Shown in pieces: positions 1,225 through 8,988 of a DNA stretch of 64,000 nucleotides. The position numbers were made by a program, and so were the translations under genes. How positions within the stretch are numbered: position 1 is the first letter of the stretch; each line of letters opens with the position of its first letter. The notes under the pieces are model-generated. The model had not been told where the DNA came from. It did not search any database and was given only the letters and a program-made list of their open reading frames with translations. The stretch comes from Candidatus Parcubacteria bacterium (lineage in GTDB: Bacteria; Patescibacteriota; Minisyncoccia; UBA6257; HR35), in NCBI GenBank assembly GCA_026004495.1, contig BPJG01000001.1:208750-272749 (forward strand), read 5' to 3'.

Positions 1225-3660
1225 TTAAGCAAAACTAGAAATATATTTATAACGAGCCTCTATTTCTTTTTCTATTTCTTCCTTGGATTTTCCATATTTT
1301 AACAATGAATATTCAATCATTTTTCGAGTTAGTTCAAAATTAGGTGATGATGGTTTAATTGTTTTTATGCTAAAAGCATCAGAAACATAACCATCTATTA
1401 ATAATTTAATATAAAGATGGTAATTAGGAATATTTACAAGGTCAATTTTAGAAAAAATTGGATAAAATTGTTTTTCTAAAAATTCAGCATCTTCACTACC
1501 AACCCTAAAGACAGTAATTGTACCAACATTACCAAATACAGCCGATGATATTTCTTCTGGTAATTGTTTGATATATTGATGAGCTAAAGTTAAAGATAGC
1601 CTATATTTTCGAGCTTCAGATAAAATAGAGGCTATACCCTTAAAGGCAAAATTTTGAAACTCATCAAGAAAAAGGTAAAAATCTTTTCTTTGTTCTTCGG
1701 GTAAATCAACCCTTGAAAAAGCAGCTGATAAAATTTTAGCTACTAAAATCATACCTAAAAGATAAGCACTGGTATCGCCAATTTTACCCTTCGAAAGATT
1801 AACTATCAAAATTTTTCTATTATCCATAAGATCACGAAAGTTAATTACTGACTTAGATTGAGCAATTATAGGTCTTACAAAATCATTAGTTATAAAAGGA
1901 TTTAACTTAGAGGTTATCCAAGTAATCATATTTTCTAAAGATAATTCACCACCGACAACTACAGCTTGCTTAGTCCAAAATTCAACTACAGGATAATTAG
2001 TACATTTAAGCAAAAGTTCACGTCTAAATTTTTCATCAACAAAAACTCTAGAAACTTCCATTAAGGTAAAACCCCAATCAGGGTTATCCATTATCAATAA
2101 AAGTGCGTTTCTTAAATATTGTTCAAACATTGGACCACCAGTTAAACTTAAGTTATATAACTTATCGATAATTTCAATTAAAGTATTAATGATAAAGGTT
2201 TTTTGCTCAGGAAAATTTTTATCATACTCTAAAATATTTAAACCTAAAGGACGAGAGATATCTCCAGGACTAAAATAAATTACATCATCTATTCTTTCTT
2301 TAGGTATTAAACCCATAATTTCTTGAGCAACATCACCATGAGGATCAATAAAGCAAATACCATCACCATTTTTTATATCTTGTTCAGCAATATTTTTTAA
2401 AAGAGTAGTTTTACCTGTTCCTGTTTGCCCAATCAGATAAATATGCCTTCGACGATCATTCTTTTTGATTCTTACTAACGCTCTAGCACCTTGGTAAATA
2501 CTTTCTCCTAAAATTGTTCCCTCAGAGGGTAAATTTGGTGGTGGGGGTGCGGTTCGAGCCAAAAGCCAATGGATAATAGGCGATTTGGTATAAGAGGTTG
2601 GCAAATGAATAATTGAGGCAATTTCTTCTGAATTTAAAATAATTTTTTGACTTCTATTAAAAATTCGAAACGAAAATTCATAAATAAATCTTAACATCTT
2701 TCCTCTTTTTACACGATGAATAATAAATTCATTTAATTGAGGATTTATATACTGATGAAAGGCTGATTCAGCTGTTGTTAATAATTCTTCAGCATCAAAA
2801 ATTGTATTCGAAGAAACACATAGTCTAATATTTACATCAAAAAATGGTTTCGTCATTTTATTTTCTAATTTTTTAATTAAATAATCATCAATAGGTTTTT
2901 GTCTTTCTTCTATTTCTTTTTTTTCTTTAGCCTCTTTCGAAGAAAATATATCGTGCAAAGAACTAAAGGGATTCTCCTTAAAATCTTTACCTTGTTTTAA
3001 TTTATCAATAATTTTTTTTATTTTCTTTGAATATTTAGTTCCTTTAGGGTAAATAATTACTTGATAAGACATACCCTCACCAACTTTTTTAAGTTTATTA
3101 AAAGAAGCCAAAAAACTATCTAGGGGATCATTAGTTCCTTGAGCAATTTCTTGATATGTTTTTATTGGCTTAAAATTATTATCCTTTAAATTAATATAAG
3201 AACCTAATGTTATTCCTTGAGGATTAAAAATATTATAATCTTCTTCTACCAATCTTGCTTCAGAACCAGGCCAAAAAGCTTTAATTGCCTTCTGAATAGG
3301 ATCAAAATACTTTTTAGGAATAGATATATAAAAAAATATTTCTTCGCCGTAGTGTGGCGTGGCAATTTCAAAAACAATAGGATATTTAAGCCTTGATAGG
3401 GTATTAAGGAAATTTTCAAAATTATTTATTTCATCAATTAATCTTGAAGTATGAGATTCAGTTTTAGGCAAGTAATGATATTTAGGTAGTTCAATTAAAA
3501 TCAGAGAGTAATTTAATGATAGCCTTACTCTTTTTAATTCTGAAAATTTTTTAAGATAAAGGACCGTTAAATAAATCACAAATAAACCAAGAATACCAAC
3601 AATTATAGCTGAAAAATAAACCACCGATAAAGAAAAGCTATAATTTTCTAAAAAACTCAT
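1225..3660 (-). CDS. Membrane-anchored P-loop ATPase, type IV coupling protein-like (VirD4/TraD/TraG family)
   Basis: 811 aa. N-terminal TM helix. Walker A 'LIGQTGTGKTT' followed by 'IDPHGD'. Walker B 'LFLDEFQNF' (DEFxN is characteristic of T4CPs). Family assignment from motif recall only. Confidence 0.5.
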   Translation of the reverse strand: MSFLENYSFSLSVVYFSAIIVGILGLFVIYLTVLYLKKFSELKRVRLSLNYSLILIELPKYHYLPKTESHTSRLIDEINNFENFLNTLSRLKYPIVFEIATPHYGEEIFFYISIPKKYFDPIQKAIKAFWPGSEARLVEEDYNIFNPQGITLGSYINLKDNNFKPIKTYQEIAQGTNDPLDSFLASFNKLKKVGEGMSYQVIIYPKGTKYSKKIKKIIDKLKQGKDFKENPFSSLHDIFSSKEAKEKKEIEERQKPIDDYLIKKLENKMTKPFFDVNIRLCVSSNTIFDAEELLTTAESAFHQYINPQLNEFIIHRVKRGKMLRFIYEFSFRIFNRSQKIILNSEEIASIIHLPTSYTKSPIIHWLLARTAPPPPNLPSEGTILGESIYQGARALVRIKKNDRRRHIYLIGQTGTGKTTLLKNIAEQDIKNGDGICFIDPHGDVAQEIMGLIPKERIDDVIYFSPGDISRPLGLNILEYDKNFPEQKTFIINTLIEIIDKLYNLSLTGGPMFEQYLRNALLLIMDNPDWGFTLMEVSRVFVDEKFRRELLLKCTNYPVVEFWTKQAVVVGGELSLENMITWITSKLNPFITNDFVRPIIAQSKSVINFRDLMDNRKILIVNLSKGKIGDTSAYLLGMILVAKILSAAFSRVDLPEEQRKDFYLFLDEFQNFAFKGIASILSEARKYRLSLTLAHQYIKQLPEEISSAVFGNVGTITVFRVGSEDAEFLEKQFYPIFSKIDLVNIPNYHLYIKLLIDGYVSDAFSIKTIKPSSPNFELTRKMIEYSLLKYGKSKEEIEKEIEARYKYISSFA

Positions 3661-3669
3661 TTTGCTATT

Positions 3670-4050
3670 TTATATTATTTTTATTTTATTTTTTTTAACT
3701 AAAAATTTAAAGAAATGTCCTGCAAGTAAATCATGAAAGGTATCTATTAAATAAGGATTTTTTGTAGCAGCAATATACTGTAAACCATCAAAAATTCCTT
3801 TTTCTAAGACCAATTTTAATCCTGTTGATAAAACATTAGAAATTTCTTCAACTGACTGATGATGAATTTCTGCTTCTTTTTTAATTTCAGGCAATTCCTC
3901 AATTTCTTGATGGAGTTGTTTAATAAATTCCTTAAGTGAAGAATGAGCTTCCTCCTTTGTTAAATATTTCTTTTCTCTTAATTCTGATAATTTATGATGC
4001 TCTTCGAAATGTTTTAAAAATTCCTGTTCGCCTAAAAATTTCTCAACCAT
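3670..4050 (-). CDS. Hypothetical protein (charged, helical)
   Basis: 126 aa ORF in operon orientation between the T4CP-like gene and trmD; no recognisable motif. Confidence 0.45.
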   Translation of the reverse strand: MVEKFLGEQEFLKHFEEHHKLSELREKKYLTKEEAHSSLKEFIKQLHQEIEELPEIKKEAEIHHQSVEEISNVLSTGLKLVLEKGIFDGLQYIAATKNPYLIDTFHDLLAGHFFKFLVKKNKIKII

Positions 4051-4086: not shown

Positions 4087-4752
4087 CTAAAATATTTTTT
4101 TGGCTTTTTTCATTCTCCAATTATTGATTTCTTTATGATTTCCAGAAAGAAGAATTTTAGGAACTTTTAATATTTTACCTTCTTTAGTTTTAAATATAGC
4201 CGGTCGAGTATAAACTGGCATACTATATAAACCAGGCAATCTTTTATCTTCTAAAGATAATGGATTTTTCAAAAAACCAGGTATATATCTTGAAATAGCA
4301 TCTACGATTATCATTGCTGGCAATTCTCCCCCTGTTAATATATAAGGACCAATATTAATAGACAAATCAACAATTTCTTTAACTCTTTCATCAACCCCTT
4401 CGTAATGACCACAAATTATTATGAAATGTTTATAGAAAATTAGTTTTTTAATTAGAGTATAGTTAAATTTTTTTCCTCTTAAATCTGTTAAGATAATTAT
4501 TTTAGGTTTAAGTTTTGATTTTTTTTTAAGAGATTCAATGGCTTTATATATAGGTTCAATTTTCAAAACCATTCCTGGACCTCCACCATAAGGATAGTCA
4601 TCTGTAATTTTAAATTTATTGTCGACAAAATCTCTCAAATTTACCAAATTTATTTTTATAATTCTATTTTTCTGAGCTTTTTTAAATAGAGAGGAATTAA
4701 AATAAGAAAATGCTTCAGGAAATAAAGTAATAATGTCAAATCTTACCATCAA
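4087..4752 (-). CDS. trmD: tRNA (guanine37-N1)-methyltransferase
   Basis: Motifs DIITLFPE, YPYGGGPGMV, CGHYEGVDERV and GGELPA typical of TrmD (SPOUT). Confidence 0.9.
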   Translation of the reverse strand: MMVRFDIITLFPEAFSYFNSSLFKKAQKNRIIKINLVNLRDFVDNKFKITDDYPYGGGPGMVLKIEPIYKAIESLKKKSKLKPKIIILTDLRGKKFNYTLIKKLIFYKHFIIICGHYEGVDERVKEIVDLSINIGPYILTGGELPAMIIVDAISRYIPGFLKNPLSLEDKRLPGLYSMPVYTRPAIFKTKEGKILKVPKILLSGNHKEINNWRMKKAKKIF

Positions 4753-4764
4753 AATTTATGGCTT

Positions 4765-5070
4765 TTAATTTTTTAGTTCTTCAATAATTTGATCACTTTT
4801 TGTTTTTAATTGCTCAATTTTATCTGGTTCTTCTAATTTTATATTTAATCGAGCATGATTTTTTAAGCCTATGGCTTTCATTATTGTTTTAATGGCTTTT
4901 ATCATTTCTCCCCTACGACCAATAATTAGACCCATATCTTGAGGATGAGTTTTGATTTTTAAAAGAACACCTAGTTCATCGAGATGGCGAGTTATTTTAA
5001 CATAATCTGGGTTATTGACCAATGATTTTATTATAAACTCTAAAACAGTAATGTATTGTTGCTTATCCAT
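4765..5070 (-). CDS. KH-domain RNA-binding protein (YlqC/UPF0109 family)
   Basis: 101 aa; KH GxxG motif (IGRRGEMIKAIK); adjacent to trmD as in the rpsP-KH-rimM-trmD cluster. Confidence 0.7.
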   Translation of the reverse strand: MDKQQYITVLEFIIKSLVNNPDYVKITRHLDELGVLLKIKTHPQDMGLIIGRRGEMIKAIKTIMKAIGLKNHARLNIKLEEPDKIEQLKTKSDQIIEELKN

Positions 5071-5115: not shown

Positions 5116-6618
5116 TTATTTTATTTTAACATTTATCTTAGAAATATCAAGAGGTAATTTATTTAACCAAGGAGGGAAAATTAATAATTCAGCTTTTTCG
5201 ATTGAACTATATTTATCAAGATAATTTTTAACACCCTTAACATCTTGACCGGCAATTTCAGCAGTTAATTTTTTAACATCTATATCTCCCTTAACCTCAA
5301 CTTCGCCACTCAAGGAAACTGTCATTTCTTTATTTTTTAAGAAATTAAAATTATCATTTATAGTAACTGAATTAATTTTCAAATTAACAATTTTAAAATT
5401 TATATCCTGCCTTAAATTTTGTTTTGAAATAATATCTTTTAAATACTCTTTAAGGTCATTCTCTTTAATCCCAATAGTTTTTAAAGTGCCAATTCCTGTA
5501 AAAATAATTTCATCAGCTTGTTGTCCTACATTATGCGAAACATTAACAATTTTAAAATCAAAAATACCTAAATCTTCAGGAAAAATATAATTAGAATACT
5601 TTATCTTTAGCTCTTGTTTGAGTATTTCACTAATTTGTTTTTCTAAATTTAGCTTACCATCGGTTATATCATCTAAAGAAACAATACGAACGCTTCCTTC
5701 TCCACCGGTAATTGGTTCTAATATCTTAACTTCAATTTTATTTTCCCAACTACTACCCTTAAGCCCAGGAATAGTAAAAGTAGTATTTAAATCTGTTAAA
5801 TAATATTTAGGATCATTTTTTTCAGCAAATATAGTTACTTCTTGATTTCCGCCTTTTTCTAAATTTACTCTTTCTAAGGTACGATAAATATTTCCTTCAC
5901 CTGTTTGAATTCTTGTACCCGGAACTAAAGAAATAGAATTTTCTAAATCTTTATTAATAAATTTGACTTTTCCTCGCAAAGAATTGCTGCCTGATTTTAA
6001 TCCTGAAGCTTTTTGTCTAATAGAATGATTCTTTATTATTTCAATATATTCAGCTGGAAATATTAAATTTTCCAAATCTGGCTTAACAACATTAGCGGAT
6101 AAAGTTATTGTTTCTTCTATAGGTTGTTTTTCTGTTTTAAGAATTATATTTAAATTAAAATAGGCTAAATATTTTACCAAAATAAAATAACCACCCAAAA
6201 TTATTAAAATTATAAAAATTCCCACTAGAGTTAAATTTTTATTATTTTTTTTATTTTTATTAACAGCTTGATCATAATTTTTTATGTTTTTAACAACAGG
6301 CTTAGATTTCTGCGGTGGTAAAATATCAGTAACAATTTTAGTTGCTTCATCGGGCCCGTAATCACTTAAAAATATATCTAAGCCATTAGCCCTAGCTAAA
6401 GAATTTATTCTTTCATCATCGCTATCAATATAAATTTTTTTTCGCAATTTATTTATTTCACTCCTCAATATAGAGATATTAGTAGAGTTTAAAAAACATT
6501 TAGTATTTCGGGGCACAACAATAATAATTTCTTTAGCCTGAATTTCTTTAAGAGCATCAATAACTTCACCCAATTCTTCTGTACCCTTTAAATAGATATA
6601 ATCTCTTTCCTCTGTCAT
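5116..6618 (-). CDS. Hypothetical membrane protein
   Basis: 500 aa; cytoplasmic N-domain, one TM segment (~aa 135-160), large extracytoplasmic region; no motif recognised. Confidence 0.5.
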   Translation of the reverse strand: MTEERDYIYLKGTEELGEVIDALKEIQAKEIIIVVPRNTKCFLNSTNISILRSEINKLRKKIYIDSDDERINSLARANGLDIFLSDYGPDEATKIVTDILPPQKSKPVVKNIKNYDQAVNKNKKNNKNLTLVGIFIILIILGGYFILVKYLAYFNLNIILKTEKQPIEETITLSANVVKPDLENLIFPAEYIEIIKNHSIRQKASGLKSGSNSLRGKVKFINKDLENSISLVPGTRIQTGEGNIYRTLERVNLEKGGNQEVTIFAEKNDPKYYLTDLNTTFTIPGLKGSSWENKIEVKILEPITGGEGSVRIVSLDDITDGKLNLEKQISEILKQELKIKYSNYIFPEDLGIFDFKIVNVSHNVGQQADEIIFTGIGTLKTIGIKENDLKEYLKDIISKQNLRQDINFKIVNLKINSVTINDNFNFLKNKEMTVSLSGEVEVKGDIDVKKLTAEIAGQDVKGVKNYLDKYSSIEKAELLIFPPWLNKLPLDISKINVKIK

Positions 6619-7892
6619 TATAATCCCCTAGAAACTTGTTGATGTTTTTTAAATAATTCTTCAAAAAATAATATGTCTTTTTCGGTTAAAAATATATTTC
6701 TTTCTCTTAAAATTTCTAAAGAAATATCTAACGGCAGACCATAAGAAGTATACATCATAAATAATTTTTCAACTAATTCTTTATTATCGTTATATTTAAC
6801 AATCTTATCAAATTTATCTAATCCTCTTATAAGTGTTTTTTCAAATCCTTTAAATTCAGTAAAGATTACATTAATAATTTTATCATAATTATTAAGATTT
6901 TCATATAAGGAAGAAAATTTATTTTTAATATCTAAAACAAAGCTTTCTATATAGTTAATTAAATTATTTTTTATTAATTTTAGCATTAATCTTCTTAATA
7001 TTCTTCTAAGTATATAACCTCTATCTAAATTACTGGGATAAATACCATCAGCGATTAAAAATACGCTACCTCTTAAATGATCAAGAATAATTCTTAAATC
7101 TCGAATAGAAATATCTGGTTTTTTAGAGATAATATCTGATCTTAGGGGTTCAAAAAGATCGGTTTCAAAAATAGTTTCTGTATTTTGGACAATTTTCATT
7201 AATCTTTCAAATCCCATTCCGGTATCAACTCCTGGCAATTCTAATTTATTTAATTTACCTTCTTGATTTTGATAATATTCATTGAATACCAAATTCCAAA
7301 CCTCAAGATTATTAATATAAATTTCAGTTGTTGGTCCACAGGGTCCTTCTTTACCAGTGGGCCCCCAAAAATTATCTTCACGCCCAAATGCTTTAATATT
7401 TTTATCATCAAAGCCTATCTTTTTCCAAATTTGATAAGAAGTATCATCATAGGGAATTTTATTTTCGCCCTTAAAAATTGTTACATAATCTATTCTTAGC
7501 CCTAATTCTTTATTTAAAAATTCATAGGCCCAAAAAATTGCTGAATTCTTAAAATAACCTGAAAAAGAATAATCACTTGGATCATCGCTACCGAGAGGTC
7601 CAAAAGAAAAATTGCCTAACATTTCAAAAAAAGTTAAATGTCTTTCATCACCAATTTCATCAATATCCGTAGTTCGAAAACATTTTTGAATGCTAATTAA
7701 TCTTCGAGTGCCAAAATCATTAAGGGCATCTTTCTTGCCAATAAAATAATCCTTAAATTGTTGCATTCCAGCAGTAGTTAAAAGAACTGAGGAATCATTT
7801 TCAGGAATTAAAGATGACGAAGGAACCCACCTATGTCCCCTATTTTGAAAAAAATTAATGAATATTTTTCTAATTTCTTCTGAATTTATCAT
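6618..7892 (-). CDS. alaS: Alanyl-tRNA synthetase, aminoacylation plus tRNA-recognition domains only
   Basis: 424 aa. Collinear with E. coli AlaRS residues ~1-455 (TTAGMQQFK, FFEMLGNFSFG, GPCGPTTEIY, VDTGMGFERL, RGYILRRILRR). Ends where the editing domain would begin; no editing/C-Ala coding downstream. Confidence 0.85.
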   Translation of the reverse strand: MINSEEIRKIFINFFQNRGHRWVPSSSLIPENDSSVLLTTAGMQQFKDYFIGKKDALNDFGTRRLISIQKCFRTTDIDEIGDERHLTFFEMLGNFSFGPLGSDDPSDYSFSGYFKNSAIFWAYEFLNKELGLRIDYVTIFKGENKIPYDDTSYQIWKKIGFDDKNIKAFGREDNFWGPTGKEGPCGPTTEIYINNLEVWNLVFNEYYQNQEGKLNKLELPGVDTGMGFERLMKIVQNTETIFETDLFEPLRSDIISKKPDISIRDLRIILDHLRGSVFLIADGIYPSNLDRGYILRRILRRLMLKLIKNNLINYIESFVLDIKNKFSSLYENLNNYDKIINVIFTEFKGFEKTLIRGLDKFDKIVKYNDNKELVEKLFMMYTSYGLPLDISLEILRERNIFLTEKDILFFEELFKKHQQVSRGL

Positions 7893-7899
7893 TATCTAT

Positions 7900-8988
7900 T
7901 TAAAAAAATTTATTTTTTATTATTCCCCCACCTAATAAAATAATGTGATTTTTTAATGAATTATCAACCTGATCGCCATTAATATAAAAAACTGAACTTT
8001 GACCCAGGGCTATACCTTTTATTTTTTTGCTAAAAATAACACTCTTATCTTCTAAATTTAAAATTCCTGAAACAAGTGGTTGACGGTAACGACAACGAAC
8101 AAAAATATTAATTTTATTATTTTTACATATTTTTGAAATAATTTTTTCCCCAATCAATAAGTTTAATGATTTAAGCCTTATTCTGGATGTGAAAAGTATT
8201 TCTTCATTTTCTTTAGCTACTATCAATTTATTATTTTTAATATCCTTTAAGGCAACATAATAAGGACCACCACCTGTTTTAATATCTAATCCATGCCTTT
8301 GCCCCTCAGTAAAGAAATAATAACCCGAATGATAACCTAAGATATTATTCTGACTATCTACTATTGTACCTGAATATATCGGCAAATATTCTTCAAGAAA
8401 ATTTCTTAGTCTTATCTTTCCCAAAAAACATATTCCCTGGCTATCTTTTTTACAAGCATTAGACAAATTATTTTCTATTGCTAGTTGTCTAACTTCTGAT
8501 TTTAAATAATCTCCTAGCGGGAAAATAATATTTTTTAGATAATTTTTATTTATTTGCCACAAAAAATAGGTTTGATCCTTATTGGTATCTTTAGGAATGG
8601 CAATGAAATAATTATTTTCTAATTTAATAATCTTAGCATAATGACCACTGGCAATAAATTTAATATTAATTCTTCTTAAAAAATCTAATACATAACCAAA
8701 TTTTATTTGGCTATTACAAAGAACATCAGGATTAGGAGTAAAACCTCGACTATATTCTTTAATCATCTCTAAGGCAATTGTTTTTTGATAATCTTCACTA
8801 ATATCCAAAGTATAAATTGGAAAATCTAATTTTTCAGCTACCAAACGAGCATCTAATTCATCTTGAGGGTTACAAAACTTAGATATTTTTAAATGAATAC
8901 CAATCACCTCATAGTTTAGACCCTTTAATAGTAAAGCAGAAACTGAGGAATCTACTCCACCTGACATTAAGATGGCAATTTTTTTCAT
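7900..8988 (-). CDS. mnmA: tRNA-specific 2-thiouridylase
   Basis: PP-loop SGGVDSSV; TPNPDVLCNSQIKF motif; 362 aa. Confidence 0.88.
   Translation of the reverse strand: MKKIAILMSGGVDSSVSALLLKGLNYEVIGIHLKISKFCNPQDELDARLVAEKLDFPIYTLDISEDYQKTIALEMIKEYSRGFTPNPDVLCNSQIKFGYVLDFLRRINIKFIASGHYAKIIKLENNYFIAIPKDTNKDQTYFLWQINKNYLKNIIFPLGDYLKSEVRQLAIENNLSNACKKDSQGICFLGKIRLRNFLEEYLPIYSGTIVDSQNNILGYHSGYYFFTEGQRHGLDIKTGGGPYYVALKDIKNNKLIVAKENEEILFTSRIRLKSLNLLIGEKIISKICKNNKINIFVRCRYRQPLVSGILNLEDKSVIFSKKIKGIALGQSSVFYINGDQVDNSLKNHIILLGGGIIKNKFF

Follow-up and report, generated by a model that had tools for sequence, protein, structure and literature searches.

Why would an ATPase resembling the coupling proteins (T4CPs) of conjugation systems be encoded among housekeeping genes in a Candidatus Parcubacteria genome, and what could it do there? 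Patescibacteria account for a large part of bacterial diversity; they are epibionts whose genomes are minimal. In the only species tested, their chromosomal T4SS proved essential, but its gene cluster has no recognised coupling protein, and the near-universal orphan T4CP homologues of the phylum have so far had no assigned role. We examined this question in a stretch of 64,000 nucleotides, hereafter called the window, where the ATPase gene (1225-3660) has the following neighbours, all recognised with Pfam:

142-564, L11
565-1113, NusG
4087-4752, TrmD
4765-5070, KhpA-like KH protein
6618-7892, AlaRS catalytic-domain protein
7900-8988, MnmA

An earlier note on this DNA had reported neither conjugation nor integration genes in the vicinity, and our scan agrees: no relaxase, integrase, VirB4 or VirB6 was found among the window ORFs scanned (most of those of at least 90 aa). 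Scans for promoters and terminators gave no useful signal, their matches being rarer than in shuffled sequence. The product of the gene is identical to a database entry, hypothetical protein KatS3mg094_204 of a Candidatus Parcubacteria MAG (634-kb contig), and its parts are, from the N-terminus onwards:

1225-3660, minus strand, whole gene: 811-aa protein with DUF8128 and a T4CP-like P-loop ATPase, paralogue A of the lineage (ATG-start ORF, Pfam)
3553-3636, minus strand, single N-terminal TM helix, residues 9-36 (hydrophobic segment; Kyte-Doolittle scan of relatives)
2611-3513, minus strand, DUF8128 alpha/beta N-domain of about 300 aa, about residues 50-350 (precomputed PF26449)
1351-2523, minus strand, RecA-like NBD of the VirD4/VirB4/HerA type, about residues 380-770
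2404-2436, minus strand, Walker A LIGQTGTGKTT, residues 409-419
1861-2208, minus strand, all-alpha insertion within the NBD, about residues 485-600 (where T4CPs have their all-alpha domain)
1648-1674, minus strand, Walker B LFLDEFQNF, residues 663-671
1228-1338, minus strand, conserved C-terminal helical hairpin, residues 775-811 (helices H775-789 and H793-808)

The ORF and the motif positions bear out the single TM segment and the two Walker motifs that the earlier note had described in a protein of 811 aa. In the AF2 model (mean pLDDT 84.4), the TM region belongs to a long helix (11-49); as it is immediately followed by the basic stretch KKFSELKRVR, the positive-inside rule would make all that follows cytoplasmic (N-out/C-in). 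Walker A residues G411, Q412, T413, G414, G416, and K417 are invariant in 37 relatives, as are D666, E667, F668, and N670 of Walker B among the relatives aligned; family-wide, the motifs take the forms GQTGTGK[ST] and (F)YLY[ILV]DEFQN[FV], the latter being kept across DUF8128 representatives. The all-alpha insertion, modelled as six helices (H485-590) and matched by TrwB_AAD_bind in Pfam, is very highly conserved, with the blocks TGGPMFEQYLRNALLL and TSKLNPFITNDFVRPIIAQ, and the C-terminal hairpin has the consensus ELSxLKYGxPREEIExEIxERY. The assignment to PF26449 is the precomputed annotation of the identical protein (P0001) and of all its close relatives. When residues 36-385 were used as the sole query, 1000 representative proteins were matched, of which the complete ones are 780-935 aa long and contain the ATPase; a literature search for “DUF8128” found no papers.

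To which family does the ATPase belong? The earlier note had read it as T4CP-like and had named three Pfam models for checking this, all of which score above their cut-offs: TrwB_AAD_bind (33.5 bits, cut-off 20.5), T4SS-DNA_transf (29.4 bits, cut-off 20.1), and TraG-D_C (24.1 bits, cut-off 22). The margins of these T4CP models are small, and DUF87, the HerA central domain, also passes (28.6 bits, cut-off 23.2). In a profile search of the PDB, TrwB was the best sequence match (E 9e-8, with an identity of only about 15%), followed by DotL (4e-5) and HerA (7e-4). TraD and VirD4-like models head the NCBIfam matches, all falling far short of the cut-offs of the curated T4CP equivalogs (TraD_Ftype, SXT_TraD, conj_TOL_TraD, conju_CD1115): SXT_TraD, the best, reaches 45 bits for a cut-off of 366, and the others reach 19-32 bits for cut-offs of 250-650. 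Among the traits of a T4CP, the protein has the RecA-like NBD with intact Walker A and B motifs and the inserted all-alpha domain; linkage to relaxase or MPF genes is seen neither in the 64-kb window nor among the recurrent neighbours of 80 related loci. Judged by its sequence, the “T4CP-like” reading holds.

One has to keep in mind that canonical VirD4/TraG/TrwB T4CPs, such as TrwB (1e9r), DotL (7ovb), and Cag-beta (8dol), have two TM helices and no DUF8128, whereas the present protein has one TM helix (none in a clade of fused forms described below) and an extra 300-aa DUF8128 between this anchor and the NBD; its gene, moreover, belongs to the chromosomal core, has a small partner of its own, and lies near no relaxase or MPF genes. 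The protein is no canonical T4CP, with its DUF8128 N-domain and its lack of relaxase or T4SS neighbours here and in more than 80 related loci.

The earlier note had also found it unusual for such an ATPase to sit among housekeeping genes. This is not so; it is the rule in the phylum, and the locus represents the normal state rather than an oddity. Quinonero-Coronel et al. (2025, Microb Genom, PMC12102498) counted 5,713 T4CP homologues in 2,918 of 3,035 Patescibacteria genomes (96%), only 148 of which lie near virB4, the homologue being encoded elsewhere in the genome than the T4SS, and very few relaxases in these genomes. That an orphan family of coupling type is present in nearly all Patescibacteria, away from conjugation genes, has thus been known since 2025. 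The ATPase is almost certainly one of these homologues, with which it shares a VirD4-type match, a location far from virB4, and the lack of a relaxase. The parts of PMC12102498 available to us do not mention DUF8128, the partner gene, its fusion, or a relation to Bacillus plasmids and phages, and the 5,713 homologues may include types other than DUF8128.

Our own comparison concurs: all 80 species-representative loci come from Patescibacteria and have housekeeping neighbours only (NDK, SecY, Adk, Map, L20, DnaX), and genetic linkage to virB4 or other T4SS genes occurs in no locus examined. Conservation at the same locus, which the earlier note had proposed to check, was found, the cassette being syntenic in a related MAG (locus L086, 85% identical), from which the flanks beyond the window were taken. 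Another point concerns copy number. The related MAG GCA_026004515.1 carries two paralogous cassettes, A and B, which fits the roughly two copies per genome in PMC12102498; a second paralogue was sought in the window, and none was found. Paralogue B of this lineage adjoins RmuC and a pilus operon. We considered pilus/competence linkage, which the earlier note had tentatively suggested for the ATPase, as a property of the family and rejected it: no ORF with a prepilin motif was present in any of the 41 species-representative loci of at least 15 kb, a T2SSE homologue was present in only 1 of the 80 loci, and the linkage is confined to the surroundings of paralogue B of this lineage.

What does recur beside the ATPase is a small gene, located 9 nt upstream and co-directional:

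3670-4050, minus strand, 126-aa all-helical partner protein
3694-3852, minus strand, conserved C-terminal three-helix module of the partner, residues 67-119 (pLDDT 80-85)
3724-3759, minus strand, partner motif NPYLIDTFHDLL, within the three-helix module

Of 73 loci, 40 have a homologue of this partner directly upstream of the ATPase gene, and in a further 26 or 27 it is joined to the N-terminus of the ATPase; the lower count leaves out a fusion (L024) that contains a masked X run and is probably an artefact. The 6 loci scored as partner-less may reflect over-extended ORFs from a simple ORF caller (one of them, L041, had a match). The fused forms make up a single clade without a TM helix, the partner being placed exactly where the TM helix of the ATPase otherwise sits. 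Partner identities fall into the same A and B groups as those of the adjacent ATPases. D103 and H106 of the partner are invariant in 28 diverse sequences and, together with G85, at least 90% conserved among 68. The protein has no Pfam match and no TM helix was found in it; its AF2 model (pLDDT 73.9) matches no PDB fold (best Foldseek E 2.6). We tried VirB3, CagZ, and TraM as possible analogues and set them aside, as the partner has neither a TM helix nor a PDB fold match. The Cag-beta/CagZ and DotL adaptor complexes are alike in concept, as there, too, a T4CP-type ATPase has its own small all-helical protein, encoded by a separate gene, but the partner model resembles no PDB chain in fold or sequence; CagZ binds the all-alpha domain of Cag-beta, whereas the fusion geometry sets the CPR partner at the N-terminal, membrane-proximal end. 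The conserved partner gene, its fusion with loss of the TM helix in a single clade, and the two cassettes in the related MAG are new here. The earlier note had passed over both the DUF8128 N-domain and this gene at 3670-4050.

Outside the CPR, the closest full-length relatives are found in conjugation clusters of Bacillus plasmids, and further close ones in Bacillus phages. The plasmid proteins are annotated as “DUF87 domain-containing” and are 869-885 aa long (for example, USK36540.1 in CP085711.1 and WP_345805471.1 in NZ_CP154917.1); hhalign aligns the family with the 869-aa protein over 626 columns, DUF8128 region included (probability 99.95%, E 2e-37). Its gene lies directly upstream of a Replic_Relax (relaxase-family) gene, and in a related Bacillus cluster genes for conjugal-transfer proteins and for an AAA_10 VirB4-type ATPase come after the one in the T4CP slot. 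On the phage side, phrog_5156 (Bacillus phage G gp156) matches residues 95-800, i.e., nearly end to end (E 1e-73). These plasmid and phage proteins have the full architecture of DUF8128-like N-domain and ATPase in common with ours but share only 24-26% identity with it, have DEA in place of DEF in Walker B, and lack both the N-terminal TM helix and the small upstream partner; the plasmid relatives sit in a conjugation-type cluster (Replic_Relax and AAA_10 VirB4), and the CPR ATPase does not. We dropped the label “pLS20-like” for these plasmids, as the T4CP of pLS20 has 786 aa, two TM helices, and a different gene order. Since DUF8128 and ATPase also occur together in the coupling-protein slot of Bacillus plasmids, the best reading of the family is that it descends from a T4CP of monoderm type and is now chromosomal and without a relaxase. 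The unit can now be defined as a two-gene, sometimes fused module, with DUF8128 common to Bacillus conjugation clusters, and it offers a concrete experimental target.

The explanation that we favour, and to which we give about an even chance of being right as a whole, is that of a two-gene module inherited vertically across Patescibacteria, descended from a T4CP and serving as a client of the T4SS. Its two parts are a small cytoplasmic helical protein and a membrane-tethered ATPase, which has DUF8128 as its N-terminal half and a catalytic half that would group, within the FtsK-HerA superfamily, with the coupling proteins of the VirD4/TraG/TrwB branch; the CPR-specific partner would have been gained after descent from the T4CP. 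Homology, architecture, the linkage and fusion of the partner, and the lack of mobile-element genes around the cassette are observed, whereas the ring, the nature of the substrate, and the tie to the T4SS are inferred. The ATPase, with its invariant Walker A and B motifs, would hydrolyse NTP as a ring at the cytoplasmic side of the membrane; what its all-alpha insertion binds may be a single conserved substrate of the cell, in place of the variable relaxosomes of plasmids, and the small protein may dock near the membrane, on the N-terminal face of the ATPase, to act as adaptor or regulator. The likeliest function is that of a hexameric motor for substrate coupling, perhaps one that serves the T4SS encoded in Patescibacteria chromosomes, which would be its most probable client machine; the T4SS cluster that is essential in Saccharibacteria has no recognisable coupling protein of its own (Wang et al. 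2023). Several observations go against this explanation: the lack of linkage to virB4 or T4SS genes, the NCBIfam T4CP scores far below cut-offs, the two TM helices and missing DUF8128 of canonical T4CPs, and the situation in S. epibionticum, where the T4SS is essential for epibiotic growth and the T4CP homologue, which may or may not be of the DUF8128 type and may have a redundant paralogue, is not (PMC12102498).

The best surviving alternative, possible though we lean against it, is an exapted translocation motor that acts independently of the T4SS, alone or with another channel (DNA uptake via ComEC, import of host macromolecules, or a CPR envelope process). Exaptation of the T4CP homologues has been raised by the authors of PMC12102498, and the domesticated role suggested in the earlier note is, to that extent, plausible and already in print. 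T4CP homologues, almost never linked to virB4, occur in 2,918 genomes and VirB4 in 2,417 (PMC12102498), that is, in about 500 more genomes, so at least some copies must function without a T4SS unless MAG incompleteness explains the difference. The partner is specific to the CPR and absent from the Bacillus plasmid versions; one clade has no membrane anchor, which would be odd for a channel-docked T4CP. The RmuC gene and pilus operon beside paralogue B also fit such a motor, but none of the 41 representative loci has pilus/competence genes and no conserved neighbour suggests an alternative channel. A weak match to NCBIfam CedD, the DNA-translocating ATPase of an archaeal DNA-import system, points the same way (E 5e-7) but reaches only 29 bits for a cut-off of 600. 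S. epibionticum can grow without ComEC-dependent competence, a finding that says nothing either way on the ATPase gene. More tentatively still, one may picture a Patescibacteria-wide T4SS-independent motor derived from a monoderm T4CP, with a conserved cargo (host-derived DNA, nucleotides, or proteins) and with the partner as a new class of adaptor replacing the anchor.

Could the protein instead be a divergent VirB4-type assembly ATPase, made of an N-domain and an ATPase, with the small protein in the role of VirB3? The VirB3-VirB4 gene order is an established T4SS organisation, and a small upstream gene, sometimes fused, mirrors it; furthermore, the top Foldseek matches of the ATPase model are full-length TrwK/VirB4 proteins over 850-900 columns (E 6e-16), the VirB4 structures named for comparison being TrwK of R388 (7o42/8rtd) and the Thermoanaerobacter VirB4 C-domain (4ag5). 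The predicted structure alone does not separate the ATPase from VirB4 or HerA. We consider this reading unlikely: neither AAA_10 nor CagE_TrbE_VirB of Pfam matches the ATPase at E up to 1, NCBIfam VirB4_CagE (TIGR00929) does so only at E 1e-3 (17 bits, cut-off 643), and hhalign of the family profile against the true AAA_10 VirB4 of a Bacillus conjugation operon gives a probability of 1.2%. The small protein, with no TM helix and no fold match, is unlike VirB3, and Patescibacteria already own a separate, monophyletic VirB4 (PMC12102498).

Slightly more doubtful again is a HerA/DptH-like ATPase from a defence or DNA-repair system, i.e., a ring helicase with an effector partner and no part in secretion. 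DUF87 is, beyond passing its cut-off here, often the stronger precomputed match in relatives, PADLOC mad8 covers the ATPase region (E 6e-18), and RmuC adjoins paralogue B; but in the Pfam search, as in the PDB sequence search, T4CP profiles score higher than HerA, and the protein is membrane-anchored and has neither the HAS-barrel of HerA nor the FtsK alpha/beta/gamma domains with the FtsK_SpoIIIE profile. The surroundings contain no conserved effector gene (nuclease, Sir2, methylase, or other), and defence islands are patchy in distribution, unlike this vertically inherited gene, which is near-universal and sits among housekeeping genes.

Finally, the idea of a recently acquired mobile gene, left behind by an integrated element that was conjugative or mobilisable, is essentially refuted, even though plasmids and Bacillus phages carry the closest relatives outside the CPR, with phrog_5156 matching nearly end to end: no integrase, relaxase, repeats, or tRNA target was seen around the cassette, GC content is uniform across the region (0.26-0.28), synteny is kept in the related MAG, and the family spans many Patescibacteria lineages at 41-85% identity, with related loci grouping together in the tree.

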